Source: a virus
Taxonomy: Duplodnaviria > Caudoviricetes
Length of the DNA stretch: 53,196 nucleotides
IMG/VR virus record: IMGVR_UViG_3300042558_001779
Location: 1 to 53,196 of that record
Direction: 5' to 3' (one strand)
Every line of letters starts with the position of its first letter. The stretch's first letter is position 1. Below the pieces are notes generated by a model, which saw only the letters and a program-made list of their open reading frames with translations, was not told the origin of the DNA and did not search any database. A program made the position numbers and the translations under genes. Shown here piece by piece: positions 4,574 to 21,600 of the stretch.

Positions 4574-5869
4574 TCAGGCAGGTGCGTTGTCGAAGGTAAC
4601 TGCGACGAAAGCCTCTGGACGCTTGACTGCAAGAGCGAGACGCTGCTCAGCAAGTACAACGATTGCGTTGCGGACGAAGAAGTCTGCGTGCTGTTCGCTG
4701 ATACGGATGCTTGCTTGCTCACGGTCATACAACTGTGCGCCTGTACCGAATGCTCCGACGAGAGCGGTGCCCTCGGTCATTGCTGGGGTATCGACGACAG
4801 GGATTCTCCACAAGCGTGGCTCGCCACCAAGTGCGACAGAGACAGCAACGAGGTACTGACCATTGTCGTCCTTTGACAATTCAATGTCTTCCCAATCATT
4901 AGGGTGCAACACGATGCCTGTTGGCTCGTAGTAAGCGAGGAACGAAAGGGTTGCTGCACGACGAAGTGCGTCAGCCTTGTTGTCCTTCGTTACACCGTCT
5001 GACCAGTTGTAGGTCTGTGGGTCTGAGTTCATGATGCCTGTGAGGTTTTCGCCAACACCATTACCGTTGAGGATTTGCTCATCTTCTTGCAAACGAAGAC
5101 CGTAAAGGAGTTCGTTGTCAATGATTGAACGCAACTGTGGCTCGTCGGCAAGCACATTGCGGTGTGCTGCTTCCCAGTGAGCGAGTGTGCGAACAGGAGC
5201 CTGCTCACCAACGAAGGTGAAGCCTGACTGTGGCTTCGCAGCAAATGCTGAACCGTCGCGCTCTGCGACTGAACCTGCATTGTTGGTGAAACCAGTCATG
5301 CGGAAGTACTCAACCACTGCGGCAGTCGTGGTGCGGCTTGGGAACAAGTCACGAACACGACGGGTACGCATTGGAGGAACAACGATTGGGTCGCGCTGGA
5401 TTGAACCAAACGAGCCAGGTGTACCTGATGGCATTGAGGAGAAAACATCCTTGGTTCCCCAAAGACCAGTGACATCGCCACGGTTCAATTGGAAAGGTGA
5501 AGGCATGTTTGCGCCGTTCTTGCCGCCTTGAAGGGACTTGAACTCAGGTGAGTCAAGGAACATTGCACCAAGCGACTTCGCTTGTGGCTGTTGTGTCCAT
5601 TGACCTTGAGCAGCAGCAGCAGATGCTACTGAATCGCTTGCAGGACGGTCGCCCCACTGCTCAACATCGCGCATTCCTTCAATACCCTCGATGAGGCTCT
5701 TGATTTCGCGGATGTCACGCATGTTGTTATCGAATGCTGACTTTTGTTCAGCACCAACGATGACGGTGCCATCTTCGATTTTGAATGAGTCTGCAATTGT
5801 TTTGTTGTCCGCCATCTTGGCACGCAAGGCACCTTGTAGTTCGCGGAGACGGGATTCGTCGAATGACAT
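4574..5869 (-). CDS. HK97-fold major capsid protein with N-terminal delta (scaffold) domain
   Basis: VRTLAHW, EQILNGNG.GENLTGI, LWRIPVV, FVRNAIVVLAEQRLALAVKRPEAF; strong AAGGAG RBS. Confidence 0.96.
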   Translation of the reverse strand: MSFDESRLRELQGALRAKMADNKTIADSFKIEDGTVIVGAEQKSAFDNNMRDIREIKSLIEGIEGMRDVEQWGDRPASDSVASAAAAQGQWTQQPQAKSLGAMFLDSPEFKSLQGGKNGANMPSPFQLNRGDVTGLWGTKDVFSSMPSGTPGSFGSIQRDPIVVPPMRTRRVRDLFPSRTTTAAVVEYFRMTGFTNNAGSVAERDGSAFAAKPQSGFTFVGEQAPVRTLAHWEAAHRNVLADEPQLRSIIDNELLYGLRLQEDEQILNGNGVGENLTGIMNSDPQTYNWSDGVTKDNKADALRRAATLSFLAYYEPTGIVLHPNDWEDIELSKDDNGQYLVAVSVALGGEPRLWRIPVVDTPAMTEGTALVGAFGTGAQLYDREQASIRISEQHADFFVRNAIVVLAEQRLALAVKRPEAFVAVTFDNAPA

Positions 5870-5994: not shown

Positions 5995-7245
5995 TTATTG
6001 AAGTTTTTCTTGACTGTCATCTTCTAAGGGAATGATGACATAACGCGTCTTTTTCCCTTTTGCATCAACCGTTTGGTCAATAGGTTCTGCAAGGTATTCA
6101 TCTCCGTCAATAAACAGCGATTTGCTACCTAATCCACGCTTTTTCCAAGGGTGTCCTTTAGGAAGAAGGTCGTTGTCTGTTACATAAGAAGCCTTAGCGC
6201 TTCCAGACATAAGCAGTCTCAGGAAGGCGTTTACTCTTCCCATTGCCCACTGGTTGCGGGTCATTCCTGGTCTGTGGCTGACACTGAATGCTCCAGCACC
6301 ACGGCGGTATACAGCCTTGAGTGCGCGAAGGTTGGTCTTTGACCATTCATTCTTGTCATTTTTCTTTACAGAAGCGTTATGTTCTCTTACCTTTGAAGAA
6401 AGAGTACGAACGATTGTTTCATCCATAGCAATAGAACCAGCAGAGCCAACAGAACCAGCAGAGCCAATACGGTTATTTCTAGAACCAATAACGCGGTCTT
6501 TCTTAGGTGCTGGAGTTTTAGCCAAAGACTTTTCTTCACAGCCACAATCCTCTTTTTTCTTTTGCTTCTTTGGGCGACCATCAGGACGAATATTCATCAC
6601 TCTGTTGTAATCAGGGGTCGCAGTACATGGAAGATAAACTCTTTTCCCATCACTTGCTGTGTAGGAGCGAATACCAATACATCCAAGTTGACGCGCACGA
6701 ACACGAGCAGAATCTGGGTTTGTGTAAACATCGGGGTCTGTTGAACGGCTTACATAATTAACAAAACCTTTTGCATCAATCGGCGTGATGTCTTCGTTTT
6801 TTCCAGAAACAAGAGAGCCGTCAGGGAGAGTGTCGATTGAAATGATTCCACCTTCGTTAAGTGGCTCCCAATCGCTCTTAGAAGGCTTTATCATCCCAGT
6901 GTTTTCTGGTCTGCCGTTATTCTTTGGCATACAGGCGGCATACATCGTTCCACCATTAATTCTGACTACACGAACTCTTGCGCAACCATTCCTTTTAGAG
7001 GCAGCAAGTGCTTGCTCTCTGGTCGGGTATAAGGATTTACTAATAGATGCGTGCCTAGCGGTTTTGCTTTCAATTAGTGAAATCTTTTCACCTTTTTTTG
7101 CTGGCAGTTTTTCACCACGAGAGACAGCAATAAATGTCTCTTCATCTTTGCATGGCAGCCAAGAGCCGTCCTCTGCCTGGTGTGCGCCATAGCATCCAAG
7201 GCGTTGAGCAATCTTCAAAGCCTGTTCCCGTGTTGATTTCATCAC
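5995..7245 (-). CDS. Head-associated protein with three DUF3721-like Cys repeats and a C-terminal DUF5824-like domain
   Basis: Three A..LGC.G.......Y/W.PC-type repeats; LKAVYRRGAGAF..SHRPGMTRNQWAMGRVNAF. Confidence 0.75.
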   Translation of the reverse strand: MMKSTREQALKIAQRLGCYGAHQAEDGSWLPCKDEETFIAVSRGEKLPAKKGEKISLIESKTARHASISKSLYPTREQALAASKRNGCARVRVVRINGGTMYAACMPKNNGRPENTGMIKPSKSDWEPLNEGGIISIDTLPDGSLVSGKNEDITPIDAKGFVNYVSRSTDPDVYTNPDSARVRARQLGCIGIRSYTASDGKRVYLPCTATPDYNRVMNIRPDGRPKKQKKKEDCGCEEKSLAKTPAPKKDRVIGSRNNRIGSAGSVGSAGSIAMDETIVRTLSSKVREHNASVKKNDKNEWSKTNLRALKAVYRRGAGAFSVSHRPGMTRNQWAMGRVNAFLRLLMSGSAKASYVTDNDLLPKGHPWKKRGLGSKSLFIDGDEYLAEPIDQTVDAKGKKTRYVIIPLEDDSQEKLQ

Positions 7246-7532
7246 TTCTTGTCTTTAACGATTTTAATTTTTGAAGGAACGCCAGGCTTTTTGCCTTCTT
7301 TTTCATCAACATTTTGAAAATCGATGTTGTTGTTTGCAACATCTTTGAAGACACTGTCTAACTCTTTACGGTTTTCTTTTTTTGAAAAATACCAAACAAG
7401 AGAGTGAAGCGTTTCTTCATCGCCGTCAGAAAGACTTTCAGAAACGATAGTTATCTTTCTGCGGACATCAACACCCAACTTAAAGTACTGCTCTTTAATG
7501 AATGAGATATTTCCCTCGGTCAACTTAGACAT
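7242..7532 (-). CDS. Small hypothetical protein downstream of the GNAT effector (candidate partner/immunity)
   Basis: 96 aa, tightly coupled to both neighbours. Confidence 0.7.
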   Translation of the reverse strand: MSKLTEGNISFIKEQYFKLGVDVRRKITIVSESLSDGDEETLHSLVWYFSKKENRKELDSVFKDVANNNIDFQNVDEKEGKKPGVPSKIKIVKDKK

Positions 7533-7534
7533 AT

Positions 7535-10153
7535 CTATTCCCTTTCATCTCTTGGGTCTGCTGAAATTTCATTCTTCTCCAGGTAAAAGGCACCGCTGCT
7601 AAATGGCATATTAGTAAGGAACCAATCTTTGATTTCTTGTTCCCTATCTTTTTTGGCTTGTCCTACTTCATTATTGCTCAAAGCATAGATGAAGTCCATG
7701 TGACGAACAGAGTTAGGGTCTGCTTGCTGTTTGCGAATTAGGTATTCAATCAACTTTGCATCATCTTCATTTTTGATAATGCTTTGTCTTCCACCCCTAA
7801 AGGCTGCTAGTTGTCTTTCCATTCGGCTAATTCTTGCTCCAAGATTGCCTGGGTCTTCAAAGCCCATTCTTCCCCAAACATATGGACCATCATCAACAGC
7901 ACTAACACTAACTTTTTCAAATCCAGCAGCACGGGCATACATCCATGAGTGCTGGTTGTAGATTGTTGCAATGCCAGAGTTTTTATGCTTGGCACCTCTA
8001 ATAAACATAGTGTTGTGATAAATGCGGTCACTTCCCGCATAAATCGTTCTTCCACTGCTGCCTACTGTTTCCCAACTACCATCATTTTTTTTGTGCTCAA
8101 TGCGAAGTCCGATAGAAATTTGTCCATCTCTTTCCACATAGGGAGGATTTTCTAGAACAATTCTATATGTTCTTCCATTTGTGCCCTTAATCTCATCATG
8201 GGTATACATTGCTGTAGCCCATTCGCGTAATTGACGCTCAGCATCCAGTTTTTCTTCAGGCGTGCCGTTTCTGAGTTTTTGAACAAGTTCCAGTCTGCGC
8301 TCTTGGGTCATTTCCTTCCAAGGAGCGTTACCTTTTCCATATCGTTCGTCGAGATATTTAGAAAGAACCTTTTTTCTGTTTTTGATGGCATCCTTAACTC
8401 GTTTGTTTGCTGCTGCAGCAACATCTGGCGCAAGGTCCTCAGGCACTGCGGCAGCAGGCTTATTAACAGCATCTTGATTATTAAGCAACGCTACAGCACG
8501 GTCAGCAAAAACATCGCGACGCATTGCTGCATCTTTCAAATTAGCGTTAATATTGTAGATTTCTCGTGCAATTCGCTTTCTTTCAGCAGCATCTGGTTCG
8601 TTTTCAAAACGAAGCATTGCTTCTCTTAACGCTTTTCGATATTCCTGCTTTCGGTCATTAAATTCGTTGGCATTTTGAATAACATTTTCGCGAGGAGAAT
8701 TTGCAATTTCATTAAACCGTACCAACGCATCTCGCTCATAAATTAGGCGATTTTCTCTGTCTCTTGGTGTCATGGCCCAATCTTCATTGCGGTAAAGGTC
8801 ACCCAATACGCCATCAAGTTCATTCCAATCAATGCCGTCGCCAACATTAAGTCTTCCAAATGCTTCCCAATCTGGCTGGTCTTTACCACCTGCGGCTCCA
8901 GCCTTTGGTGCTTTGTCACCAGAAAGTTCTTCTAAACGATTCTTAAATGCGTTACGCCGATTAAGAGCCATCGCATAGTCTCTGTTCTTCTGCAGAATCT
9001 TTATCTGCATAACCTCAAAGTCGTTATTGTTTGCATCTGGACCATCCGCTCTCATCTTGTCAAGAGCATCTTGGAGTTCCCTCTTAGCCTCTTTTACATA
9101 ACGGTCCTGATTTTCAATGTTTCCGCGAAGTTCAGCAAGGTTCTCTTTACCCCACGCATTCATATCTCTCAAAACATTTTTGCGAGCAACCTCAATTTCG
9201 TTCTGTGCTTCTTCAATATCATTCTTGCTTAAACCAGCAAACCGTGAAAGTTCATCAGCATTAAGAGGTTCATCACCAACACCAATAAATCCAGCGGCAC
9301 GAATCTTTTCACGCACAGGATTTTCTGCCTCTGGCTTGACGGCTGGTTTTTTAGGCTTTGCCACCAACTTAGGTGGTTCATCATTTCCACCAGCAGCAGG
9401 AGTGACACGACGAGCAGCAGCCTTCTTGGCAGGTGCCTTCTTCTTGACTGCCTTCTTCTTTGCTGCAGCCTTTTTGACTGGAGCCTTCTTTGCAGGCGCT
9501 GGAGCCTCTGGAGCATCAACTTCGGGCTTTGGCTTCTCTCTTGTTACCTGTTGTGTAGCAGGTCGACGACGAGCAGCAGGGGCATTGGGTCGTGGACGAC
9601 GGGCAGGAGGAACATCGCCTTCACCAGTGCGAGGAGCGCCAGGCTGGTCAATTTCTCTCTCAATACGGCGCAACTCTGAATCACGGAAATTTGGCTTTCG
9701 GCTACGCTGAACTTTTCCACCACCGCGTCTAGTGCGTGGTGCTTTAGGTGCTTCTACTGTTTCTGTGCTGTCTAATGCGTTGGCAATACCTCGGGCTGCT
9801 CTTTCAAGTCTTCCGCCTTCTTGCATTCTCCGTACTACACGCTCGTTGCGACGATTCACACGACGACCGCGACGACGGTCTCCAATATTTTCAAGACGCT
9901 CGCCAAGGTCGGAAATTTCATTTGCTAATCGACGAGAAACACCCCAGCCACAGTTACGACCGAAACGGTCAGTGATTTGACCACCGTAACGAGTACCTGG
10001 CGGGCAACGCCAACCACCCCGACGATTAGTGCCAGGGATTGCAAGGCTGTCGTCAAATACGGCGCGTGTTCTTTTAACTTCGTAGGCAATTGATGATGTA
10101 TCACGCTCTGAAATAAAAGATTTTGCTCTGTATGTAGATATTTCACGGAGCAT
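7535..10153 (-). CDS. Large protein: conserved N-terminal RCP..TD..C module, PAKK repeats, helical region, C-terminal GNAT acetyltransferase-like domain
   Basis: KHKNSGIAT (GNAT motif A) ... GFEKVSVSAVDDGPYVWGRMGF; N-terminus nearly identical to part of the 984 aa ORF. Confidence 0.8.
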   Translation of the reverse strand: MLREISTYRAKSFISERDTSSIAYEVKRTRAVFDDSLAIPGTNRRGGWRCPPGTRYGGQITDRFGRNCGWGVSRRLANEISDLGERLENIGDRRRGRRVNRRNERVVRRMQEGGRLERAARGIANALDSTETVEAPKAPRTRRGGGKVQRSRKPNFRDSELRRIEREIDQPGAPRTGEGDVPPARRPRPNAPAARRRPATQQVTREKPKPEVDAPEAPAPAKKAPVKKAAAKKKAVKKKAPAKKAAARRVTPAAGGNDEPPKLVAKPKKPAVKPEAENPVREKIRAAGFIGVGDEPLNADELSRFAGLSKNDIEEAQNEIEVARKNVLRDMNAWGKENLAELRGNIENQDRYVKEAKRELQDALDKMRADGPDANNNDFEVMQIKILQKNRDYAMALNRRNAFKNRLEELSGDKAPKAGAAGGKDQPDWEAFGRLNVGDGIDWNELDGVLGDLYRNEDWAMTPRDRENRLIYERDALVRFNEIANSPRENVIQNANEFNDRKQEYRKALREAMLRFENEPDAAERKRIAREIYNINANLKDAAMRRDVFADRAVALLNNQDAVNKPAAAVPEDLAPDVAAAANKRVKDAIKNRKKVLSKYLDERYGKGNAPWKEMTQERRLELVQKLRNGTPEEKLDAERQLREWATAMYTHDEIKGTNGRTYRIVLENPPYVERDGQISIGLRIEHKKNDGSWETVGSSGRTIYAGSDRIYHNTMFIRGAKHKNSGIATIYNQHSWMYARAAGFEKVSVSAVDDGPYVWGRMGFEDPGNLGARISRMERQLAAFRGGRQSIIKNEDDAKLIEYLIRKQQADPNSVRHMDFIYALSNNEVGQAKKDREQEIKDWFLTNMPFSSGAFYLEKNEISADPRDERE
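9788..10126 (-). repeat. Copy 1 of a 339 bp duplicated coding module (copy 2 at 12655-12993)
   Basis: Both encode AKSFI...YEVKRTRAVFDDSLAIPGTNRRGGWRCPPGTRYGGQITDRFGRNCGWGV.RRLANEISDLGER...GGRLERAARG. Confidence 0.92.
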
Positions 10154-10436
10154 CGTAACCGTATTCCTTTAAGAGTTTGTCGACTTTTTCTTTTGCAGCG
10201 CCAGAGTATTCCCCTTTTTCTACAGAAGATGTGTCGCTAACGGAAGCGACTCTTTCCATTTTTAGTTCTTCTTTTGAAGGGTTTTCTTTTTTAAGGTTTT
10301 CGTACCATGTGTTGAACCATGTGTCGTAATTCTTTGACTTTGAATATTGTTTTACTGTGTCGCCAAAGTCAATATAAATCAATACGCCATCTGCTTCCAC
10401 ATCTGGCATTTTTTCTTCTGCAATCATGTATTTCAT
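10143..10436 (-). CDS. Small hypothetical protein downstream of kinase effector 1 (candidate partner/immunity)
   Basis: Likely start MKYMIAEE at 10436 with AAGGA upstream; 97 aa. Confidence 0.72.
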   Translation of the reverse strand: MKYMIAEEKMPDVEADGVLIYIDFGDTVKQYSKSKNYDTWFNTWYENLKKENPSKEELKMERVASVSDTSSVEKGEYSGAAKEKVDKLLKEYGYDAP

Positions 10437-10446
10437 TATTTTTCCT

Positions 10447-13389
10447 TTAACTTCCGATGATGAGGTCTGCAATTGATGATGCACTTAGCGAAAGGAAGAA
10501 ATCAATTCGTTGCTGAGGCTCGTCAATAAGTTTTCTTTGTTCGGTGTTTCCGACAACATGTCTTTGTGCGCCACGAGCAAATTCATCAAATTTCAAATCT
10601 CTCTGGCTACGACGCATATTATCTTGCATATCTTGTACTACGCGAGCAATTTCATCGCGTGTTACTTGATTTCTTTGTACTGACTGACGGAGACGGGCAA
10701 GCATGTCATTTCTCCCACCACCGCGATGGCTTTCGAGGAATGCTGCCAGACCTGCTCTGTCTGCCATTGCGCCATTCCAGTTTGCATACACCTCAGCATT
10801 GAAGCCTAAAGATGGGTCAATTGGAACAAACCTGTTTTCCCCATTTTGTTCGGCAACGAAGTAGTTGCCCGCATGTCTGTCGACATTAACAATAAGGTAG
10901 TCAAGAATTGTGGCGCGAACTTTATCTTCGTTAGATACTTCACCGCCATTTCGTGGAGATTTGATATCCCCCTCAATGTAGTTGCCAGCATGTTCGAACA
11001 AGATTGGTCTTAAAGCGCCGTGCCTGTCATTCTTTAGCGGACCAGCGAATCTAAATTCTCCAACGGGGAAGCCGAGTCTTGCTGCCATGTTGTTACCGAG
11101 GATTTCGCGAATGTCTTCACCTTTTGCAGCACGACCATTTTCATACTTTGTATAGTATTTTTTACCGTTTGTACTATCTTCAAATAGGAACATGTTGTCT
11201 GCAATTTGACCATTTACTCCTCCGCCAGCGGCTTCGCGTTTGAAACGCTTGCCTGGACCAGAGTTGTCATGCAGTGCTTTAAGCACGAAATCGTCTGGGA
11301 CATCAGCAATGTCACCGCCATTAGCAACATGGAGAATTGCGTCAGCCTCAGTGTTCATTCCCTTGTTTCCGACTGGAACGCCACCCCATCCAGGGAAACC
11401 ATCTTCGCCAATTGGGCCAAGTTTTCTGTCGCCTCTCTTGGAGCGAAGGAATCCTCGTGCCGCCTGAGCAATTTTTGCCCCTCGTCTTGTCTTTGCTTGC
11501 GCTGGTGGAGACGGAGGTGTAATTGCTGCTGGAGATGGGGTGTCGGTGAGAACAGGGGGGACTTGAGAACGACGAGGACCAGGGCGTGGTGGTTCATTGT
11601 GAACATCGAGATTTGCACCATTAGCGTTCGCTCTGTCGACTTCTGCCTTTGACACGACATAGTATTTGCCGTTGTGCTTAACGATTTTGTAATCACCGCG
11701 TTGTGCAGGATTTTCTTGTTCAATAAATTCGCGCTTGCGCCGTGCTGCCGCTAGGTCGTTTACGCCACGCTGACCAGGAGCGTTGAATGGCTTGCGCTGA
11801 CGACGGGCAGGTTGGTTTGCGTCTGGGGCATCGGCAGGCTTTGGACGGCGTGTTGCTGTACGGGCTGCACCAGCATCTGTTGCTGTGCGGCGAGCGCCAC
11901 GACCTGCGTTTCTCTGCTGGGCACGATTCCAGTTTTCTTCAACTGCTGGTCCGTGGAACTGGTCCCATTCTTCGCGTCTTAAAAATCCAGCGTTGCCGCC
12001 TGCTTCGTTAATTTCGCGCACACGCTGTTGGTGTTCGTTGAATTTGCGTGTCTTGTATTGTTCAAGTGTTTCGCCTGCTCGTGGTGCGCCAGCAGGTACT
12101 GGGGTTCCGCTTACATTGTCAACTTGTGGTCGACGGGGTTTGCGTGGTTGGCGCTCAGGGACGATATCTCCTGGGCGAGGGCGAACGCCTTGTCCGCCAC
12201 CATCTAGACCATTTGGGTATCTTCCACCAGGAGGGATTACACCCTGACCGCCGTTTGGCAGAATGTCTGGTCGACGGGGTTGGCGGGGTTGGCGTGGCTT
12301 AGCAGGGCGAGCCTGTGGAGCCTTCGGTCTCTTTGGTGAGGGCGTAACTTCACCAGGAAGTTTTGGGTCGCGGATTCCACGACCGCCACCATCAAGACCT
12401 CGTGGTCTACGAGGGCTAGGCGTTCCGTTTGGCACTGTTTCTTCGCCGTTCCATCCTTCTCTGAAACCTTCGATGAATGCACCTACAGCGCCACCTCTAT
12501 TGCCTCTACGGCGACGACGACCGCCATTGTTGTCTGAGTCCAAAGCGTCTCCAACACGACGGGCAGCACGCTCAAGGAGACCAGTACCACGAGGCTTTGA
12601 AGAATCAGGGGTATCTACACCTGGTCTGTTTGTTACATCAAGTACATCTGCAACTCCACGGGCTGCTCTCTCAAGACGACCACCTTGTGCTAAACGACGA
12701 CCAACGCGCTCATTGCGGCGAGATACTCGGCGTTCACGACGCTTGTCTCCGATGTTTTCTGCACGCTCACCGAGGTCAGAGATTTCATTAGCCAAACGAC
12801 GGGCTACACCCCAGCCACAGTTACGACCGAAACGGTCAGTAATTTGTCCACCGTAGCGAGTTCCTGGCGGGCAACGCCAGCCGCCTCTACGATTTGTACC
12901 TGGAATAGCAAGACTGTCGTCAAAAACAGCACGAGTACGCTTCACTTCATAAGCAAATGTTGATTTATTTACATCAGCAATAAAAGATTTTGCTTTGAAC
13001 TGAACAGCATTGCGCCATTCGCTATTTTCAAGATAGTCAAGACGGGCATCCATCAAAGAAATGACTGGCACAAGTTCGGCAGATTTTTCTTCTTTTGCTG
13101 ACTCGACTGGTTCAACTTCTTGAGTTTTCTTAGACTTGGCAATTAACTCGTCAATCTTTGCTTTGTTTGCACGATTTGCTACGACTGGACCTTCAACATC
13201 CATTGAGTTATCAAGAGTTGCGGATAGTTCCTGTTTTGTTATTGTACGAGCAGCGTATTCATCTTTCATCCATGATGCCCATGTCGTGGATGATTCAGCA
13301 AGTGGGTAGAACTCTGTTCCTCCAGCAAGAAGCGCAACTACTGCGTATGGCTTCCCTGTCTTGTCTTTGATAATGAACGCTGATTTCAT
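10447..13389 (-). CDS. Large protein: small N-terminal domain, RCP..TD..C module, Arg/Pro-rich linker, C-terminal HipA/PI3K-PI4K-like kinase
   Basis: GGGVNG loop, YYTKY, EILGNNMAARLG, DYLIVNVDRHAGNYF, IDPSLGF; ATG at 13389 just after the upstream stop. Confidence 0.85.
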   Translation of the reverse strand: MKSAFIIKDKTGKPYAVVALLAGGTEFYPLAESSTTWASWMKDEYAARTITKQELSATLDNSMDVEGPVVANRANKAKIDELIAKSKKTQEVEPVESAKEEKSAELVPVISLMDARLDYLENSEWRNAVQFKAKSFIADVNKSTFAYEVKRTRAVFDDSLAIPGTNRRGGWRCPPGTRYGGQITDRFGRNCGWGVARRLANEISDLGERAENIGDKRRERRVSRRNERVGRRLAQGGRLERAARGVADVLDVTNRPGVDTPDSSKPRGTGLLERAARRVGDALDSDNNGGRRRRRGNRGGAVGAFIEGFREGWNGEETVPNGTPSPRRPRGLDGGGRGIRDPKLPGEVTPSPKRPKAPQARPAKPRQPRQPRRPDILPNGGQGVIPPGGRYPNGLDGGGQGVRPRPGDIVPERQPRKPRRPQVDNVSGTPVPAGAPRAGETLEQYKTRKFNEHQQRVREINEAGGNAGFLRREEWDQFHGPAVEENWNRAQQRNAGRGARRTATDAGAARTATRRPKPADAPDANQPARRQRKPFNAPGQRGVNDLAAARRKREFIEQENPAQRGDYKIVKHNGKYYVVSKAEVDRANANGANLDVHNEPPRPGPRRSQVPPVLTDTPSPAAITPPSPPAQAKTRRGAKIAQAARGFLRSKRGDRKLGPIGEDGFPGWGGVPVGNKGMNTEADAILHVANGGDIADVPDDFVLKALHDNSGPGKRFKREAAGGGVNGQIADNMFLFEDSTNGKKYYTKYENGRAAKGEDIREILGNNMAARLGFPVGEFRFAGPLKNDRHGALRPILFEHAGNYIEGDIKSPRNGGEVSNEDKVRATILDYLIVNVDRHAGNYFVAEQNGENRFVPIDPSLGFNAEVYANWNGAMADRAGLAAFLESHRGGGRNDMLARLRQSVQRNQVTRDEIARVVQDMQDNMRRSQRDLKFDEFARGAQRHVVGNTEQRKLIDEPQQRIDFFLSLSASSIADLIIGS
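12655..12993 (-). repeat. Copy 2 of the 339 bp duplicated coding module
   Basis: Collinear and same length as 9788-10126; the core differs mainly at synonymous sites. Confidence 0.92.
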
Positions 13390-13390
13390 A

Positions 13391-15598
13391 TTAGATTCCA
13401 AGCAATTTTATTGTCTGCTGTTTTCCACGGACAAGCCTGTCAAGGCGTAATGTAAACAGTTTTTTGAGAATTTCTAGGTGAGCCTGTTCTGAGCGGGAGA
13501 GGTTTCCATCTGCCGAGAGACGACTTGCGTATTCGTCCCATTTAAATTTCTGTGCTCTATCGATAAGGGTATCATAAATACCAAGTAGTTCATTTCTCTC
13601 TTTGGGAGAAAGAGAGCCGAATCTGTCTTTGTAAATTTTGCTACTGCGATTTTCAATATATGTTGGCAGGTCGATTTTGAATCGCTCAGCAATGTCTTCG
13701 GCACTCAGACCAGAGAGCGCTGAAAGTTCATTTCCTGATGGGACGACAATAAGTTTTTGCTGTGTGCGCACTGGACGCAGTGTTGCTGGGGAACGGTCAC
13801 GAGCATCTGTCAAGTAATCTGCCATAAATACGCGAAGCATGTCTTCTGCGGAAACCTTGCTGAAAGGTTGGTCAAAATCAATACGGTTGCCATCGTTAGC
13901 GACATCGCCAATAAATGATTCACGCGAACCATCTTTGCCAATAAACCTAACTGCTGGTGTCGGAATACCTAACTGTGAAGCAACATCTGAATAGTATCTC
14001 TCTGCGATGGAGCCATTCTTTTTAGTTTCAGGAACTTGGTAATAAGTCTTGCCAGAACCATCTGAATACTCAGTAACTCCAGTACCCAACTTGCGAGATT
14101 GATACTTCTTGCTACGACGCATAGCATCAGACAAAAATTCAGGAGAAATATCAAACGGGTCTCCGCCGTTATCAATCAACTCAACAGCGTCAGCAAGGTT
14201 CTCTGGAGCATCAGAAACATTAGCCCCATCCTCACGAAGAGTTTCTTTCTCCACGCGGGCAGAAAGTTTACCAGTCTTGCCGCTGTCCTTCATGAAGGTT
14301 TCATAAACCCAACGGCGAACTTCTTTTTTATTGCCATTAGCATCTTCAACTTCAATCAAATCAAGAGGCTTGGGAACATTGGGAAACTTCTCTGAATATT
14401 TGAAAGCACCGCCAGAACCATTAGCAAAATCACGAATGTTATTACCGACATCATATTGGTCACTGGCAGCAGCAACATTGTTCAACTGGCGACCGAACTT
14501 ACGGCGCTCACCAACAGTTAAATCACGCTGACGCTCAATTGAAAGAACGGAACCATTTGGTGTTACATAAGCAACTTGACGAATTGCTGGACCAGATAAT
14601 AGAGCAAGGTCATCACCAACGATGTCGGTTGGCTTTGCAATAGAGCGAACAAAAACGCCATTTTCCATGTCAGGGTTGCCGCCAAAGTTACGCAAAACAG
14701 AAGAAGGGACAAGAGACCTCAGGATGACTCCATCCTTACGGATTAGGCGTGACTCTCCAGCGGGGGAGCCAGTAATACCTGAAATAACCTTAGCCACATT
14801 GGCAGCCCGAACTGTAGGATTTTCAACAGCACTACGGGGAACCTTCGCCATACGCATAATCTGAATTGCACGACTTTGTTCTGGAGTCGTACCCTCTACA
14901 ACCTCTGAAACATCCTCAGCCCGTGCTCTAGCAATTGCGGGCTTATCTCCGCGCAAAGAGTTAACCGCGGCATTGAGTGCAAGTTCAAACAACTGTGCTC
15001 CACAGGTGCTGTAGTTTCTGTCTGTAAATCTACCGCCATGCTGGAAACCTGCTGGACAGCGATATCCGCGTTCACCGTTTGGGCGAGGAATTCTACGGCC
15101 TCCACCGCCACCAGGAACCAGTGCTGAATAAATGCGCGAACGGATAGGGCTGCGAATTCCTGAAATGTCGCCAGGTATTGCAGCAGTTCCAGCCGCTTGT
15201 GCTGCTTGACCAAGGCGGCTCTGTGAACCAATCAACCCAACTTTTACCTGAATTTCTTCGCTTGTTTGTTTTACTTGGACATCTGCGCCGATTCGTGGCT
15301 TTGTTGTGCGAGTAAATGCTGCAGCCTTAAAGTTGAGAGCGTTCTTATTGTTTTGTAGTTCTACTTGATTGCGAAGAATTGCTGACTTTGAACGGATGTA
15401 GGGTTCAAGCGGTCGCTTGATTGCTGTTTCGCCATTGACAAAATGACGGGTGCTTTTCGACTTTTGACGGCTTGGGTAAAAATCAATTGTGCGATAGTTG
15501 TCTACTGCAACTGTACGGCGTACTACTGCGTCTTTGAGCATGGTCGGACGATGATGACGCAAGAGGGAATTAATTGAACCATTGGAGTTATTTATCAT
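13391..15598 (-). CDS. Large protein with RCP..TD..C module and degenerate C-terminal HipA/PI3K-like (pseudo)kinase
   Basis: YRCPAGFQHGGRFTDRNYSTC; AERYYSDVASQLG; DYLTDARDRSPATL in place of DRHxGN. Confidence 0.75.
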   Translation of the reverse strand: MINNSNGSINSLLRHHRPTMLKDAVVRRTVAVDNYRTIDFYPSRQKSKSTRHFVNGETAIKRPLEPYIRSKSAILRNQVELQNNKNALNFKAAAFTRTTKPRIGADVQVKQTSEEIQVKVGLIGSQSRLGQAAQAAGTAAIPGDISGIRSPIRSRIYSALVPGGGGGRRIPRPNGERGYRCPAGFQHGGRFTDRNYSTCGAQLFELALNAAVNSLRGDKPAIARARAEDVSEVVEGTTPEQSRAIQIMRMAKVPRSAVENPTVRAANVAKVISGITGSPAGESRLIRKDGVILRSLVPSSVLRNFGGNPDMENGVFVRSIAKPTDIVGDDLALLSGPAIRQVAYVTPNGSVLSIERQRDLTVGERRKFGRQLNNVAAASDQYDVGNNIRDFANGSGGAFKYSEKFPNVPKPLDLIEVEDANGNKKEVRRWVYETFMKDSGKTGKLSARVEKETLREDGANVSDAPENLADAVELIDNGGDPFDISPEFLSDAMRRSKKYQSRKLGTGVTEYSDGSGKTYYQVPETKKNGSIAERYYSDVASQLGIPTPAVRFIGKDGSRESFIGDVANDGNRIDFDQPFSKVSAEDMLRVFMADYLTDARDRSPATLRPVRTQQKLIVVPSGNELSALSGLSAEDIAERFKIDLPTYIENRSSKIYKDRFGSLSPKERNELLGIYDTLIDRAQKFKWDEYASRLSADGNLSRSEQAHLEILKKLFTLRLDRLVRGKQQTIKLLGI

Positions 15599-15962
15599 TT
15601 TTTTGAGTTCCCATATTTTTGTCCATTTCCATAAGCACTATGTCTATTGGTGACATTTGGCGTTGAGCATCAAGTTCTAGTTCCTCTTGACGGTTGCTTT
15701 CATCTTGTCGGCTAATTTGAGCGCGAACTGTGTTCAACATAGATTCTATATCAAGAGTGACTTCCCCAATTTGACTATCTTGATAGGGGAAGCGATTTGA
15801 AATTCTTTCTAAAGTGCTGTATGCGTCACGCTTTAATAATTCTTTCATCTCTTTACGGATTTTTATGTTATTGCTTACAACTTCGATACTGCCATTATCG
15901 TCTACAAAAACAATTGGCGCAAAGGGGGTTGTTCCATCTGAACTGACTAGTAAAAATCTCAT
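15588..15962 (-). CDS. Small hypothetical protein downstream of kinase effector 2 (candidate partner/immunity)
   Basis: About 124 aa (MRFLLVSSDG...); overlaps the start of the next gene. Confidence 0.72.
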   Translation of the reverse strand: MRFLLVSSDGTTPFAPIVFVDDNGSIEVVSNNIKIRKEMKELLKRDAYSTLERISNRFPYQDSQIGEVTLDIESMLNTVRAQISRQDESNRQEELELDAQRQMSPIDIVLMEMDKNMGTQKNDK

Positions 15963-15968
15963 TACCAA

Positions 15969-17438
15969 CTATGCCTCACTGCTGACTACTGGCATTTTTT
16001 CTCTATCAAATTCATTAATTTTTTCTTTACCTATGATTTCGGTAAATAAATCTTGAGCGCTTATAGACCTTGCGTATTCAAGACGCAAAATTGAATCTTC
16101 GATTTGTTTTCTTTTAGAAACAGCATTGAAATCATCAAACGCTCCCACATCTCTTTGTGTTTGCATTTGCTCAAAAACAGCAATTAACTCATCTGCCTTT
16201 CTGCGTAATTCATCCGTATTTATTTCTTTTAGTCGCGTTTGTATGTTCCTAAGCGTTTCGAGCGCCTCGTCGTTTGCTACATCTTCAAAATACGCTTGTT
16301 TAAATACTTCAACCATTATATCTGGTCTATACATGTCGTCAAAAAGAGCATCGTTCCTTGCATTTGAATCAAATCCAAGCGAGTTGTCGATGGGCACCAT
16401 GTAACTAACTCCGCCGTCTGTTTCAAGCAAAAAGTTTCCAGTATGCCTATCTCCATTGACCATAATTGAATCAAATAATGCAGTTGTCCATAAAGACTCT
16501 TTGTCAATATTTTCTGGTGTTTTAGTAATAGTGTAAGGTCCAAAATTCCTTTCAACACTATGGATTTTACCAGACCTGCGATTATGCACTAGTTCTGACA
16601 CAAGAGTAACGCCATTGTATTCTGCTGGAACAATACGCATCGGTATTGGTTCAAAACCTAGCGCTTGAGAAAAGTGCTCACCCATTACTTCGTTTAATGG
16701 TTCTGCAATATGAAACGATGGTGCTTCTTTATATTTATAGCCAATCATGTTCCCCGTAATCGTGTCTTCGAGGCGTGTCATTCCATTTACACCACCACCC
16801 GAACCAATGACTTTAAAACGCGGTTTACGACCAAAAAGTCCTATTCTCCCAGAGTTTGAAACAATCGCAGCCATTAGGTATTCATCTGGAATATCAGACA
16901 ATGAACCACCGTCTCCAATATGTTTAATTGCATCAGCAGAGGACTCAATAACTTTTGACTCCCCAGTTTTGGGGTCTTTAATTATTGCGCCAGAAGGAAC
17001 TGGTTTAATTTCAAGACGACCAGCAGCATCAGAAAATCCGACACCAGAATCAACAATTTGTTTTTCATCTTTACTTGATTTAGGTCTCAAAAATCCTCTA
17101 TTGAAACCGCCAGCCAACTTTTTTAACCCATCAGCGGCAGCACGCGCAGCCTCATTTGCTGCTGTTTGTGCGCTTGGAACCATACAGTTAGACATATTTA
17201 TGTCTGTGAACTGATTGGCATTAGGGGTTCCTGCTGGGCATCGCATCTTGCCGTTTTCGTCAACAATAACGCCTGCACGCCGAGCAGAAGTTACACCTAC
17301 AGAAGGAACACTATTGTCTTCCCGCAATGACCGTCCAAGAAAACCTTTTGTGCGGATGCCGTCGCCTACAGACTTAAATGCTGCTGCAGCCTTCACTACC
17401 CTCTGAGTGGGGTCAAATGGTTGTTCGTAGACAGCCAC
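15969..17438 (-). CDS. Protein with RCP..TD..C module and C-terminal HipA/PI3K-PI4K-like kinase
   Basis: MRCPAGTPNANQFTDINMSNC; GSGGGVNG, IGYKY, NEVMGEHFSQALG, DSIMVNGDRHTGNF, IDNSLGF. Confidence 0.85.
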   Translation of the reverse strand: MAVYEQPFDPTQRVVKAAAAFKSVGDGIRTKGFLGRSLREDNSVPSVGVTSARRAGVIVDENGKMRCPAGTPNANQFTDINMSNCMVPSAQTAANEAARAAADGLKKLAGGFNRGFLRPKSSKDEKQIVDSGVGFSDAAGRLEIKPVPSGAIIKDPKTGESKVIESSADAIKHIGDGGSLSDIPDEYLMAAIVSNSGRIGLFGRKPRFKVIGSGGGVNGMTRLEDTITGNMIGYKYKEAPSFHIAEPLNEVMGEHFSQALGFEPIPMRIVPAEYNGVTLVSELVHNRRSGKIHSVERNFGPYTITKTPENIDKESLWTTALFDSIMVNGDRHTGNFLLETDGGVSYMVPIDNSLGFDSNARNDALFDDMYRPDIMVEVFKQAYFEDVANDEALETLRNIQTRLKEINTDELRRKADELIAVFEQMQTQRDVGAFDDFNAVSKRKQIEDSILRLEYARSISAQDLFTEIIGKEKINEFDREKMPVVSSEA

Positions 17439-17456: not shown

Positions 17457-17708
17457 TTACTCTGTTGGCTCTGAAGCAGGCTCTTCAGCAGGTGCTTCTT
17501 CAGCAACTACTACTGTCTCTTCGACAACTGGAGCAGGCTCAGACTCAACGACTGGCTCAGACTTCTTCTTAGACTTCTTGTCGGCAGCCTTAGGCTCTTC
17601 AGCCTCAACTACTTCAACGACTTCAGTCTTTGATTGAACTGGCTCAACAGCCTTGTTTTCAACTTGGATAAACCCAGTTGTGCTTGGTTGAACTTTTTTC
17701 GGTGCCAT
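17457..17708 (-). CDS. Small acidic low-complexity protein
   Basis: 83 aa, E/P/V/A-rich, TAATG-coupled to the upstream gene. Confidence 0.7.
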   Translation of the reverse strand: MAPKKVQPSTTGFIQVENKAVEPVQSKTEVVEVVEAEEPKAADKKSKKKSEPVVESEPAPVVEETVVVAEEAPAEEPASEPTE

Positions 17709-19114
17709 TATTGTTCCTCAATTCCTGTCTCAACAGCGAGCATTTCAAATTCCATAAGGTCTGCAAGGAACTTCGTTGCTTCAGCATCGTCGCTCTTCTC
17801 GCCTTCGGTCATGTCCTCTTCAGGCTTGACCATTTCCTCGGATTCCTCTTCGTCGTCTTCCATGTCCTCGGACTTTTCGGACCATTCTTCTGGAATCATG
17901 TCTTCCTTGCCAAGTTCTGCTGCGCGCTTCATGATATGAGCCTTTGCTGCTTCCTTGTCTCCTGCGCGACCGTATGCTTGGATTGCGTTCTTGAGGTCGT
18001 CTTCATCCTTGATTGGGAATGAACCGTCAGGAAGTGCTTCTCCAGCCTCTGCCATTGCGTTGCGAGCCTCTTCGTCATACATGCGCTTGAGGGCGAGGTC
18101 TGCAACTTCTGCATCGATGTCTGCTGCTTCGTCTGCTTCGTACTCATCCCATCCAAGGACTTCTCCGTCCAAGGAAACGAATACATCGTATGACTTGCCA
18201 TCAAGACCGTCAATTTCAACTGCGAAAGCGTCGTAGCCTTCAAACATGTCTGCATCAACGCTGATTACATCGCCTTCAACTGACTTTGTAGCGAGGATTG
18301 CTGCTTCGTTGAACGAGATAACTTTTGTGCCGTTAATTTCTGCAACTTCGCCAATGACGCTTTCGTTGAGAAGGTGCCAGCCCATGCATTCACCAGTTGA
18401 ACCATCAAAGAATGCTTCAATTGGCTTGCCATCTTTGCGCTGAACATCAACAACATAAATGTCTGTTTCATCTGAATAGCCAGAGTCAAGAACTTTTCCT
18501 GAGAACATGTCCTCAGCAACGCCTTCAACTTCAAGAAGTGACGGCATGTCTTGTTCTGCTGCACAACCACCTGGGCATTGTGCGCAAACTGTTGCACCAC
18601 CAGGGAGCATCTTGCGTTCAAACGCGCAAACAAATGCGTCGTCGTCGAAATCTGCTGACTTAACGCCCATTGTGTCCATGCGCTTTGCACGAGCCTTCTT
18701 GCGCTTTGCCATTGGAGATTCGTCCATCAACTCTTCTTCGACACCTTCGACCATGTTGGACATAGGCGAACCGCCCTTGGTGTCCATGTCGTCTACGGTG
18801 ACCCAGCCATCTTCTTCGATGTCTGACTTAACGGAAACTGCTGCTGCGCCGCATTTGCCGCACACCTTGTCTCCGACCTTGTATCCGCATTCTGAGAGTT
18901 CAAGACCCTTTGCGCATGAAATGCTGCCGTCTGCGCTCAACTTGACTGTGGGCTTGTCTGCCATGTCTTCTGTCTCCTTGTATTGCATGGTTGATGAAAT
19001 ACAACCCTTAGGATTGGTACATCCAGAACATGGGTTCATTCGCTTTTCGCCTGAAACCATGCAATGAAATTTTGCTGTTGTTTTTGGTAAACCGTTCTGA
19101 GAAGTATAACTCAT
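17708..19114 (-). CDS. Cys-rich, acidic head protein with two PepSY-like repeats and a DUF6582-like domain
   Basis: CxxC clusters; YVVDV..KDG...FDGSTGE and FAVEI...DGKSYDVFVSLDGEVL; ALPDGSFPIKDEDDLKNAIQAYGRA. Confidence 0.78.
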   Translation of the reverse strand: MSYTSQNGLPKTTAKFHCMVSGEKRMNPCSGCTNPKGCISSTMQYKETEDMADKPTVKLSADGSISCAKGLELSECGYKVGDKVCGKCGAAAVSVKSDIEEDGWVTVDDMDTKGGSPMSNMVEGVEEELMDESPMAKRKKARAKRMDTMGVKSADFDDDAFVCAFERKMLPGGATVCAQCPGGCAAEQDMPSLLEVEGVAEDMFSGKVLDSGYSDETDIYVVDVQRKDGKPIEAFFDGSTGECMGWHLLNESVIGEVAEINGTKVISFNEAAILATKSVEGDVISVDADMFEGYDAFAVEIDGLDGKSYDVFVSLDGEVLGWDEYEADEAADIDAEVADLALKRMYDEEARNAMAEAGEALPDGSFPIKDEDDLKNAIQAYGRAGDKEAAKAHIMKRAAELGKEDMIPEEWSEKSEDMEDDEEESEEMVKPEEDMTEGEKSDDAEATKFLADLMEFEMLAVETGIEEQ

Positions 19115-19129
19115 CTGAGTATGTCCCTC

Positions 19130-21163
19130 TTAGTGGTTTTCCTTGTTGTGCAATTCTTTATACGCGCTTAACGCATTAATCATTGCACTCTTTGCTTCTG
19201 ACGAAACACTACTACCAAAGTAGATTCCTGTCTCGTCAACTTGCGAATCAATTTCGTGGAACTCAAGGATTGGGTCAATGAGTGCTTTCACGCTGAAAAG
19301 CGAGGCAATAGGTGCAGTAATTCTCATTTCACCATTTGACTTAACTTGTACGACTGGTTCTTTTGATGGCGCTGATGCAGCGACAACTTCTTGAAGGATT
19401 TCCATAGCCTGCTGAAGTTTCTGCAGGTTGCGATTGCTAATCATGCGACCAGCCTTCGTCTGCATTTCTTCGTCAATAGACTTACCAAGTTGTGAAAGGA
19501 TTGACATAAGTGCCGAAACTGGCTTTGGCTTATCTTTTCCTCCGCAACCACAACCACAGTCATCCTTGTCTTCCTCGGTGTCCATACCCATTCCGTCACC
19601 CATATTGCGACGGTGAATGACAATCATTCCCTTTTCGTCATCGCCAGCATGTTCCCAGTTATTTTTGTCTTCAACAAACTTGGCAAATTCTGGTTGCTCA
19701 GCAAGGAATGCTTTAAGCATTTCTGCTGCTTTACCTTCAATTTGACCAGGAGTCATGGATGACATATCTTCGTCTTCCATCATGTCCATTCCCTTTTCGG
19801 CACCTGACGGGATGCGACTAAGACGGTCGTTCCACTCGCGGTCATTCCAGATAGAACCGTTAGAAACTCCACGAATCTTGTTGCGGCAGTTCTTCATGCC
19901 AGGATGGTGACATCCTTCGTTAGGCCAAAGACCAGTAGTTTCATGATGCAACCATGCGCAAATACGCTCAAGTGGGTACAACTCTGGGTGGTCAGCAAGA
20001 ATTACTCTGCAACGACGGAATCCGCCTTCGCGCTTCATGATTGGACGCCAGTATTTCAGCAATGCTTCAAGGTTTCCGCGACGAGGACCGCGACCTTGGA
20101 GGACATCTCCAGTGAAGTTTTCCTGAGGAATACCCACAGCCTCGGGTGCTTTTACAGATGGCTCATTGAGAGGAATGTCAACTGACTCGCTTCCGCCACC
20201 CGAGCATGATGCGCACTTGCAAATCTTTGGCTTAACGCCTTCTGGCAGTCCTGGATATTCTTCCATTTCGCGCTGGTATTGACGCATTACGGGATTGCCA
20301 TTTCTTTGAGGCATCTCTTCTTCGTTGTCATCATTTTCGGCATTTAAGTAAACAGTCTCTGGCTTTACCTTTACTGCGCTGCCAAACATGAACTCATCGC
20401 CATCAAAATGGTAGGTGACGCGCAATGTCTGCTTGTTTCCATCTTTGTCCATATGGTCGAAGATGACCATGTTTTTATCTGATGTGCGGAGGCGTACTGC
20501 ACCACCAAAACGCATAGCAAGTGCTTTTGCCAGGTTTGCTTGGCGACCCATTGCTGGATTTGCTGCTGGAACTCCGCCATCTTCGCCGCGTGGACCAGTG
20601 TAATCTGCATCATCATCTTGCTCACGGAGAGATTCATCTGACTTGATTGAAATGGTGCTTGTAAGTTGGTTTGCGCCGTGGAGAACTGGTGAAACTTCGT
20701 AAAGTTCTACTTCACGGAGGAGGTTTGCTTGACGCTGTGAGTCATAGTCGGCATTAAGGGTTTTGTAACCGATTGACCATTCCTGTTCTTCTCCAAAGAA
20801 TGCAACATCAGCAAATGCTTGACGACCACGCTCAGATTTAAGGTTGAACTGAACTCGTGCGTAGAGTCCGCCGATGCCAGCACGCTTCATCTTCATTGGG
20901 AGACGAGGGTCATTTGGTCCAACTTCGTAGATTTCAATGACTTTCCCGATTGGTTCGTTCCAGTTATGCCCCCAAACAACGCGAGGCTTGCGGCGCTTGA
21001 GGCTTTCAGTAAAGCAACCAGGGAGACAGATGTCGCCAACGCTGTCTTTATTTCCAAGACCTGCTACGAAGCACTCAATGATGCCTTCTGCCTCGTCAAT
21101 GTTGACTTGCCCTTGCATCGCTTTGTATTCGGTACCAGACAGTGCGGCATTATCATGAGGCAT
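19130..21163 (-). CDS. HK97-family prohead (maturation) protease with long C-terminal extension
   Basis: GNKDSVGD, VVWGHNWNEPIG, WSIGY, LYEVSPVLHGAN. Confidence 0.93.
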   Translation of the reverse strand: MPHDNAALSGTEYKAMQGQVNIDEAEGIIECFVAGLGNKDSVGDICLPGCFTESLKRRKPRVVWGHNWNEPIGKVIEIYEVGPNDPRLPMKMKRAGIGGLYARVQFNLKSERGRQAFADVAFFGEEQEWSIGYKTLNADYDSQRQANLLREVELYEVSPVLHGANQLTSTISIKSDESLREQDDDADYTGPRGEDGGVPAANPAMGRQANLAKALAMRFGGAVRLRTSDKNMVIFDHMDKDGNKQTLRVTYHFDGDEFMFGSAVKVKPETVYLNAENDDNEEEMPQRNGNPVMRQYQREMEEYPGLPEGVKPKICKCASCSGGGSESVDIPLNEPSVKAPEAVGIPQENFTGDVLQGRGPRRGNLEALLKYWRPIMKREGGFRRCRVILADHPELYPLERICAWLHHETTGLWPNEGCHHPGMKNCRNKIRGVSNGSIWNDREWNDRLSRIPSGAEKGMDMMEDEDMSSMTPGQIEGKAAEMLKAFLAEQPEFAKFVEDKNNWEHAGDDEKGMIVIHRRNMGDGMGMDTEEDKDDCGCGCGGKDKPKPVSALMSILSQLGKSIDEEMQTKAGRMISNRNLQKLQQAMEILQEVVAASAPSKEPVVQVKSNGEMRITAPIASLFSVKALIDPILEFHEIDSQVDETGIYFGSSVSSEAKSAMINALSAYKELHNKENH

Positions 21164-21279: not shown

Positions 21280-21600
21280 CTATTTGTAGTGCTTCTCTAG
21301 AATCTTGGTAAGAGATTGCTTGCTTGTAGCACCAATAACCCTGTCGACTTCTTTGCCATTGACATAAACAATCATCGTAGGGATGCTCATAATCTCCATA
21401 GATTCTCCAAGAGAAGTGTTCTTGTCAACATTTACAGCAGCAAAAGAAACTTCACCCGATAAATCAAATGAAATATCCTCAAGAATTGGTGCCATCATCT
21501 TGCATGGTCCACACCATTCAGCCCAAAAGTCAACAACAGCAACGGAGTTGTTGTTGATGAAGTCATCGTAAATGGATTGTGTAAGTTCTGGAAGAGCCAT
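21280..21600 (-). CDS. trxA: Thioredoxin
   Basis: VDFWAEWCGPCK, MSIPT; 106 aa. Confidence 0.95.
   Translation of the reverse strand: MALPELTQSIYDDFINNNSVAVVDFWAEWCGPCKMMAPILEDISFDLSGEVSFAAVNVDKNTSLGESMEIMSIPTMIVYVNGKEVDRVIGATSKQSLTKILEKHYK

Follow-up and report, generated by a model that had tools for sequence, protein, structure and literature searches.

The window analyzed here is a viral record of 53,196 bp (IMG/VR record IMGVR_UViG_3300042558_001779), estimated to be 36% complete, and the element in question is a short two-cysteine loop with the motif R-C-P-x-G-x5-[QR]-[FI]-T-D-x5-C. One copy is present in each of p489, p735, p984 and p872, the products of four consecutive minus-strand open reading frames (ORFs) of the head operon. 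The minus strand carries, in order, genes for a portal-MuF fusion protein, a thioredoxin, an S78 prohead protease, p468, the four loop proteins together with three small Cys-free ORFs, a 416-aa DUF3721/DUF5824 protein and an HK97-type capsid protein (Table 1), while a terminase, a baseplate protein and a collagen-like fibre protein are encoded on the opposite strand.

Four head-operon proteins share an exactly spaced cysteine loop

An earlier note on this DNA, made from the sequence alone, had claimed that all four proteins carry the motif with invariant Cys spacing. Minus-strand translation of the four 60-nt stretches gives exactly the peptides on which this claim was based, the plus strand gives unrelated peptides, and the Cys counts and a six-frame scan bear the claim out. 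A regular-expression search of the whole window in all six frames returned four strict matches, none of them outside these proteins, against a chance expectation of 2.5e-5 matches calculated from composition and none in 200 shuffled windows. Each protein has exactly two Cys residues, both of which belong to the motif and are always arranged as C-x17-C (residues 67/85 in p489, 181/199 in p735, 177/195 in p984 and 50/68 in p872). The Cys-Cys spacing is thus exact across the four proteins, while the distance to the N-terminus is variable.

We name the subfamilies A (p489), B (p872 and p984) and C (p735). The two B loops have the same protein sequence and differ at 4 of 60 nucleotides, all of them synonymous. 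Among the 128 codons compared between the two window B modules, 52 differ synonymously only and 26 non-synonymously, with no non-synonymous difference in a 49-residue core; this pattern indicates that both copies are under selection and are not merely recent duplicates.

The loop is near-invariant across metagenomic homologues

Metagenomic searches with the loop regions of p489, p872 and p735 returned 138, 438 and 180 proteins, respectively, with 120 listed for each search (360 proteins). The pattern C-P-x-G-x7-T-D-x5-C is kept in all 360 listed homologues and the strict motif in 357, the remaining three having Q to E or F to Y substitutions only. Exactly two Cys residues are found, among the matches listed, in 113 of 120 proteins from the p489 search, 113 of 120 from the p872 search and 40 of 120 from the p735 search; the last figure is low because a DUF5872 domain adds two Cys. 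This domain is N-terminal in many C-type homologues, such as P0288 (571 aa), which have the two extra Cys and no kinase end.

No other 20-aa window in the alignment of the p489 family is as conserved as the A loop (rank 1 of 470; column identity 0.96 against 0.51 elsewhere), and the C loop ranks ninth of 716 windows in the p735 family (0.85 against 0.55). In the 360 listed homologues, each with a single loop, the loop starts at residues 39-352. Alignment of subfamily profiles spanning 70 residues before and 80 after the loop (hhalign) shows that the loop region is the only part common to the A, B and C fronts, with 45, 25 and 32 columns aligning at E values of 2e-5, 6e-5 and 1.4e-6. A 41-column profile of 36 loops recovered 509 cluster representatives at E <= 1e-3 (clusters at 50% identity), 212 of them at E <= 1e-10, among 1.84 billion proteins. 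The invariant columns of this profile are R, C, P, G, T, D and C only, with no conserved His; in distant loop copies T-D is replaced by T-N, S-D, A-D or T-G. No Pfam, PHROG or PDB family covers the loop, and the loop profile had no match among all PDB chains (best E 1.9). A literature search returned nothing on this two-Cys motif, including in the main-text passages of PMC5512222 and PMC6802176 that it reached.

The C-P-x-G sequence presumably resembles a zinc-knuckle half-site, which raises the alternative that the Cys pairs of two or more loops share a metal ion, or that basic loop regions bind packaged DNA, with A, C and B assembling into one internal body. In favor of such an assembly, all but one of the four proteins have a strongly basic pI (9.7-10.1), p872 has a histone-H1-like stretch rich in K, A and P, and A, C and B are covalently joined in other phages (see below), the pieces of split proteins often still being able to associate. 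However, a zinc ribbon or knuckle has four Cys/His ligands in two knuckles, whereas each loop supplies two Cys and has no conserved His or Asp partner, the D of T-D being variable; in addition, genomes differ in how many loops they encode (1 to 5) and the A-type protein p489 is acidic (pI 5.3). We consider a metal or nucleic-acid knuckle improbable.

The loop lies in a region modelled as flexible

AlphaFold2 was run with the family alignments. In p489 the predicted confidence (pLDDT) falls below 50 over residues 71-89, which take in most of the loop, and in p735 over residues 97-195 and 208-251, which cover nearly all of the loop and its surroundings; the domains neighboring the loop are confidently modelled in both proteins. 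The models therefore portray the loop as a near-invariant sequence island in a predicted flexible region, and this combination of low pLDDT and near-invariance fits a motif that becomes ordered on binding, oxidation or cleavage, not an autonomous mini-domain. Low pLDDT beside well-folded domains is commonly seen for motifs that become ordered only when bound. A complex prediction for p468 with residues 1-110 of p489 scored 0.08 against a mark of 0.32 and, being without controls, speaks neither for nor against binding.

Giant and split forms of the same modules

In 79 of 80 related viral loci the gene immediately before the first loop ORF encodes a p468 homologue, the 80th being cut at the contig end, and the first loop ORF is on the same strand as portal-MuF, protease and p468. 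Wherever two or more loop ORFs are present their order is A, C, B (49 of 49 loci). In 47 of 119 newly listed representatives, 2-4 loops lie within one chain. P0374 (1066 aa) is colinear with A, C and B followed by a kinase, P0375 (2811 aa) is colinear with C, B, a region like the p872 C-terminus and then a kinase, and in locus L086 a single loop ORF of 2945 aa spans the whole interval from p468 to the pre-capsid gene. The A, C and B modules make up the first ~650 aa of one giant multi-enzyme protein in some phages; the window divides them, with their order unchanged, among four genes that each have an enzyme domain of their own. Given the common A-C-B order, either the window genes are the split form of a giant or the giants are fusions, and the order is compatible with both directions. 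Where kinase and non-kinase ends are in separate genes, the B module is duplicated and both keep a copy.

One further giant, P0406 (2331 aa), has divergent RCPEGIASGGQFTGVLADNC-like loops at residues 206, 533, 1418 and 1940, after an N-terminal 2H phosphoesterase domain, and all eight of its Cys residues fall in four pairs. Scans of viral contigs with the single proteins P0375 and P0406 found no relatives.

A second module, which we call PX (~85 aa), is found at the N-terminus of 28 of the 119 new representatives, at 60-81% identity, and at the N-terminus of the L086 giant; the extension of the window's prohead protease also contains it (Table 1). Since PX is common to the prohead protease and the giants, it ties the loop proteins to prohead-internal components. 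Its sequence, GRGPRRGNLE..LKYWRPIM..GGFRRC-x16-CAWLHHE..WPNEG, has a Cys pair of its own at a spacing of 17-18, followed by His-His, and these residues could form a metal site. The PX pair was also considered as a fourth loop type and rejected (hhalign probability 1%).

In locus L004 (5850-8345), and also in L005, L006 and L009, the protease ORF has an in-frame insert of ~110 aa that is 77% identical to the product of a separate 123-aa gene of the window (4090-4461), which adjoins the capsid gene. Modules are exchanged between the protease extension and separate head genes. The interior of the prohead incorporates prohead proteases and scaffolds, which are often fused to each other; that the loop proteins have modules in common with such components is at present the strongest indirect indication of a location inside the head.

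The internal proteins of T4 and phiKZ-like phages are cut in the prohead, and the loop might likewise be a processing site, recognized by the S78 prohead protease or self-cleaved, at which giant or split precursors are cut inside the prohead. The recurrence of the loop along the giants, in P0406 between stretches of 300-880 aa in the manner of punctuation, would agree with this, as would its position in regions modelled as flexible and hence accessible to a protease, and the fusion of PX, a protease-extension module, to the front of more than two dozen representatives. Protease sites, however, are usually 3-8 residues long, far shorter than this invariant two-Cys loop of 20 aa; the places at which genes are split are 50-180 aa away from the loops, which are found within modules and not at their borders; and the six-frame scan of the window found no loop-like sequence in the capsid, the portal or p468. 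A role in processing therefore seems unlikely to us.

Cysteines outside the pairs are strongly depleted

In 474 family proteins (434,175 aa), 1104 of the 1380 Cys residues fall in i/i+17-18 pairs, and every Cys is paired in 335 of the proteins. Outside these pairs Cys makes up 0.064% of the family, compared with 0.80% in the 36 other ORFs of the window, a depletion of approximately 12-fold; the four window loop proteins have 8 Cys residues where 24.6 would be expected. The pattern is kept in giants of up to 4629 aa, with all six Cys in three pairs. As the first pair of many giants belongs to PX, the pairing rule extends beyond the loop. Where proteins pass through narrow channels in an unfolded state and under oxidizing conditions, as the passenger domains of autotransporters do, they are not known to tolerate Cys pairs other than closely spaced ones. 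By analogy, the Cys pattern observed here fits proteins that are threaded out of a particle living in oxygenated water.

The same features could point to a redox latch, in which the oxidized loop would keep an enzyme or linker inactive or tethered in the virion until it is reduced in the cytoplasm of the host and so set free or switched on. The presence of just two Cys with a constant spacing, the strong avoidance of any others, and the thioredoxin gene in the same operon of the window would fit. Against this, a long stretch of sequence separates the loop from the enzyme domains, with which it makes no modelled contact, and one and the same loop is found ahead of unrelated enzymes and, in some proteins, of no enzyme that can be recognized. 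Moreover, thioredoxin homologues at the portal/protease position are confined to the five closest of the 80 related loci (L003-L006 and L018). We give a latch of this kind a low probability.

Swappable enzyme domains behind a constant front

The C-terminal domain of p489 combines a kinase fold with the D-x-H-x-x-N catalytic loop and metal-binding Asp of HipA/CtkA/PI3-PI4-kinase-like proteins, and we are confident that p489 carries a kinase domain. Matches to the Pfam families PI3_PI4_kinase and HipA_2 are weak, with a Pfam score below the curated cut-off (23.1 against 27.1 bits), and are accompanied by a match to phrog_3162. The AlphaFold2 model (mean pLDDT 77) has Helicobacter pylori CtkA as its top Foldseek match (3akk, E 4e-5) and also matches VPS34, and the DRHxGN and ID catalytic columns (D330, R331, H332, N335 and D351) are invariant in 46 sequences. 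The C-terminus of p735 likewise has a CtkA/HipA-like fold according to AlphaFold2 and Foldseek, with TM values of 0.66-0.69 to HipA_2 clusters in the Atlas structure comparison. The p984 protein is 27% identical to p489 over 423 aa (BLASTP, E 4e-27) and shows weak Pfam matches and a match to phrog_3162, and p872 is 40% identical to p984 over 413 aa. A GNAT reading of the p872 C-terminus was not reproduced; Pfam at E <= 0.01 gave only a sub-threshold Eco57I match, and a sequence search of the PDB was empty.

Foldseek comparison of the p735 model with BFVD also returned, at E values of 2e-6 to 1e-2 and with the aligned region not given, ADP-ribosyltransferase fusion proteins of phages and 'minor capsid proteins' of the MuF type; the 'minor capsid protein' matches (E 2e-3 to 1e-2, again with the aligned region not given) are a structural lead only.

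Among the 120 listed A-type homologues, the C-terminal 220 aa fall into at least nine classes behind the same front, including kinase, DUF3626 and ParB-like ends and some ends without a family match. The A-type proteins thus combine a front that stays constant with C-terminal enzyme or toxin domains that are polymorphic. A search of PHROGs with five family members gave a ParB-like match in P0115 as the sole match, and a Pfam search with three giants gave only the 2H phosphoesterase domain of P0406.

Gene neighborhood of the loop proteins

The positions of the loops, of the genes that carry them and of their neighbors are collected in Table 1.

Table 1. Features of the head operon in the 53,196-bp window.
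Feature	Position	Strand	Extent	Basis or remark
A-type Cys loop RCPAGTPNANQFTDINMSNC	17184..17243	-	residues 66-85 of p489	translation
C-type Cys loop RCPAGFQHGGRFTDRNYSTC	15002..15061	-	residues 180-199 of p735	translation
B-type Cys loop RCPPGTRYGGQITDRFGRNC	12817..12876	-	residues 176-195 of p984	translation
B-type Cys loop, peptide identical to p984 loop	9950..10009	-	residues 49-68 of p872	translation
p489: A front module (~residues 1-110) and HipA/CtkA/PI3K-like kinase domain	15969..17438	-	489 aa	
p735: C front module (lead-in, loop, folded domain ~252-440) and HipA-like kinase-fold domain ~462-735	13391..15598	-	735 aa	AlphaFold2
p984: ~125-aa lead, B front module, long basic linker, kinase-like C-terminus	10447..13401	-	984 aa	pI 10.1
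p872: N-terminal B front module, Arg-rich and K/A/P-rich histone-H1-like stretch, different C-terminal domain	7535..10153	-	872 aa	pI 9.7
p468: acidic, Cys-rich, PepSY-like features; scaffold-like candidate	17708..19114	-	468 aa	pI 4.2
Prohead protease: S78 domain at residues 23-172 and 500-aa extension	19130..21163	-		Pfam Peptidase_S78 E 8.5e-12; phrog_80
PX module in protease extension (GGFRRC-x16-CAWLHHE)	19904..20152	-	~residues 338-420	also N-terminus of giant loop proteins in other phages
Thioredoxin, between portal and protease genes	21280..21600	-		Pfam Thioredoxin E 1e-28
Portal-MuF fusion protein	21600..23798	-		Pfam Phage_portal E 5e-52; Phage_Mu_F E 1.6e-8
HK97-type major capsid protein, end of module	4574..5869	-		Pfam Phage_capsid E 2.6e-48
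Small Cys-free ORF after p489	15588..15968	-	126 aa	ORF list
Small Cys-free ORF	10143-10484	-	113 aa	ORF list
Small Cys-free ORF	7242-7532	-	96 aa	ORF list

The constant neighbor p468 scores 0.93 in comparison with viral clusters (Atlas), and PepSY occurs in 14-17% of the cluster members. A segment of p468 (residues 343-408) has matches in Gordonia phages, in the C-terminal parts of genes that are annotated as 'capsid maturation protease' and lie directly upstream of the capsid gene. The motif of this segment, LKRMY..ALPDGSFPI..DL.NAI.AYGRA, is matched in both Gordonia and Microbacterium phages by the C-terminal part of a gene, annotated as 'capsid maturation protease' or as hypothetical, that directly precedes the capsid gene, and the same motif is present in the L086 gene that precedes the capsid gene; from these sequence matches it is likely to be a scaffold-type or capsid-binding element. 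The best cultured-phage matches of capsid, portal and p468 are to actinobacterial phages and are distant (40-65% over parts; INPHARED, tblastn), and p489 and p735 had no match among cultured phages in the same comparison. None of the three small Cys-free ORFs had a match in PHROGs.

Loop-bearing loci are rare in cellular collections: among 185,579 species genomes only two were found (L083 and L084), both in one Phycisphaerae metagenome-assembled genome, and since L084 has a p468 homologue directly upstream, the two are probably phage contigs binned with the bacterium. This distribution argues that the family belongs to the genomes of phage particles and not to those of cells. The loop proteins might still be late cytoplasmic enzymes that happen to sit in the head operon, the loop being a structural element of their own, given that AlphaFold2 and the database searches assign it no function and that packaging is something we infer. 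Besides their distribution, the position of the proteins between protease/p468 and capsid in 79 of 80 loci, the presence of PX in the prohead protease as well, and a Cys depletion that is specific to the loop proteins all speak against a purely cytoplasmic role, which we regard as quite improbable.

Comparison with known packaged proteins

Polyvalent proteins are giant multi-domain proteins whose genes adjoin those for portal/terminase packaging functions and for which packaging and delivery together with the DNA have been predicted (Iyer et al., 2017; PMC5512222). Like them, the single-chain loop relatives (1300-4629 aa) carry a kinase and other modules in one polypeptide. Their pairing of at least two effector domains with a phage packaging context has counterparts in the alignment of P0375 to both the p872 C-terminal region and the kinase, in the 2H phosphoesterase of P0406 and in the head context of L086. 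Unlike polyvalent proteins, the window form is split over four genes with one recognizable enzyme domain each. The words 'cysteines', 'HipA', 'PI3K' and 'DUF3626' do not occur in the main text of PMC5512222, which suggests that the loop and front modules are not described there.

The loop proteins are also like the MuF-fused polymorphic toxins of temperate phages (Jamet et al., 2017) in having a constant front, swappable enzyme ends, a head-module location and small downstream genes. Unlike in those toxins, the MuF domain of the window is fused to the portal and not to the loop proteins. Pfam gave no match to MuF (PF04233) in the four loop proteins (E <= 0.01) or in 58 C-type members (E <= 1), and the C module was rejected as a MuF domain on this absence of a Pfam match and on an hhalign probability of 0.2% against the phage's own MuF. 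The near-absence of the family from species genomes makes these phages look lytic, unlike the temperate MuF-toxin phages. By analogy, the system appears to work like packaged polyvalent proteins and MuF polymorphic toxins, without a MuF front on the loop proteins.

The capsid targeting sequence of T4 comprises ~10 N-terminal residues on internal proteins and Alt and is removed by the head protease. The earlier note had drawn an analogy between the loop and this sequence, which is apt in that each is a short sequence common to otherwise unrelated proteins, those of T4 being loaded into the prohead. It breaks down over position: unlike a tag at the N-terminus, the loop begins at residues 49, 66, 176 and 180 of the four window proteins, lies internally in the listed homologues as well, and recurs inside the giants as far along as residue 1940 in P0406. 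The loop further differs from the T4 sequence in having at least 20 residues and two Cys and in being repeatable, and the capsid is of the HK97/S78 type and not of the T4 type.

Phage P1 loads the large enzymes of its Dar antirestriction system into a myovirus head by means of a front segment (N-terminal targeting in DarB) and helper head proteins. The loop proteins resemble these in being large enzymes with a front segment; no sequence relation was found, and P1 is not known to have a two-Cys motif. Encapsulin cargo-loading peptides are short, conserved, C-terminal and free of Cys, and dock diverse enzymes inside an HK97-fold shell. The likeness to them lies in a short conserved element on diverse enzymes, for which capsid binding is only proposed here; unlike the encapsulin peptides, the loop is not C-terminal and has Cys residues.

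A candidate docking handle for head cargo

The earlier note had proposed that the loop is a capsid-targeting or docking signal. What stands of this proposal is that the loop marks head-operon proteins with swappable enzyme ends, is present in each polypeptide that is encoded on its own and is under extreme purifying selection, as would be expected of a shared loading or docking element. Because no such polypeptide is without a loop, because B is duplicated when the enzyme ends are separated, and because the ends are swappable while the conservation peak falls on the loop, we favor, tentatively and at somewhat less than an even chance, the reading that the loop is a shared loading or anchoring handle for head cargo.

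The 20-aa sequence is the invariant core of a short two-Cys loop of ~25-45 alignable columns, placed in mostly basic linkers, modelled as flexible, of putative cargo proteins encoded in the head operon. Through the loop, in such a mechanism, each polypeptide, or each segment of a giant, would bind the same repeated partner in the assembling prohead, for which the scaffold-like p468, the protease extension, the portal-MuF ring and the inner capsid surface are candidates. The enzymes would be enclosed with the DNA and later delivered to the host. Once the virion is in oxygenated water, the two Cys would close an 18-residue loop by a disulfide, and the scarcity of other Cys would prevent long-range cross-links, so that the proteins may be threaded out through the tail.

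Several observations weigh against a docking handle. The loop is internal, starting at residues 39-352, and the two to four loops per chain in 47 of the 119 new representatives are more than loading alone would need. The T-D substitutions of distant copies imply that part of the motif is dispensable, and AlphaFold2 gives no confident fold, which leaves a disulfide-closed hairpin unsupported by modelling. The scarcity of thioredoxin genes in related loci (5/80) argues against a general dedicated redox partner, and conserved gene order alone would explain p468 as a constant neighbor. The packaging that we infer has partners that are candidates only.

A bolder form of the docking reading, which we think rather unlikely, would let the loop, together with ~10 residues to either side, suffice to bring any protein that carries it into HK97-type heads: the protein would dock at a repeated prohead site, a short disulfide formed once outside the cell would lock it, and the reducing interior of the host would release it, with the avoidance of other Cys as the signature of tail-threaded proteins. 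If true, this would provide a new sequence-defined rule for recognizing ejected phage proteins in metagenomes, and a tag for engineered cargo.

To our knowledge, the injection of enzymes along with phage DNA has been described for only a few model systems (T4, P1, N4 and the MuF toxins), and the loading signal differs from one to the next. In the present case a single short motif is common to hundreds of protein clusters (509 representatives) in an abundant group of uncultured phages and connects the giant single-chain and the split multi-gene forms of the same putative cargo, together with a striking rule of Cys avoidance. If the loop is a loading handle, such cargo would be recognizable from its sequence alone, and the selection of internal proteins by HK97-type heads would become testable with a 40-residue tag.

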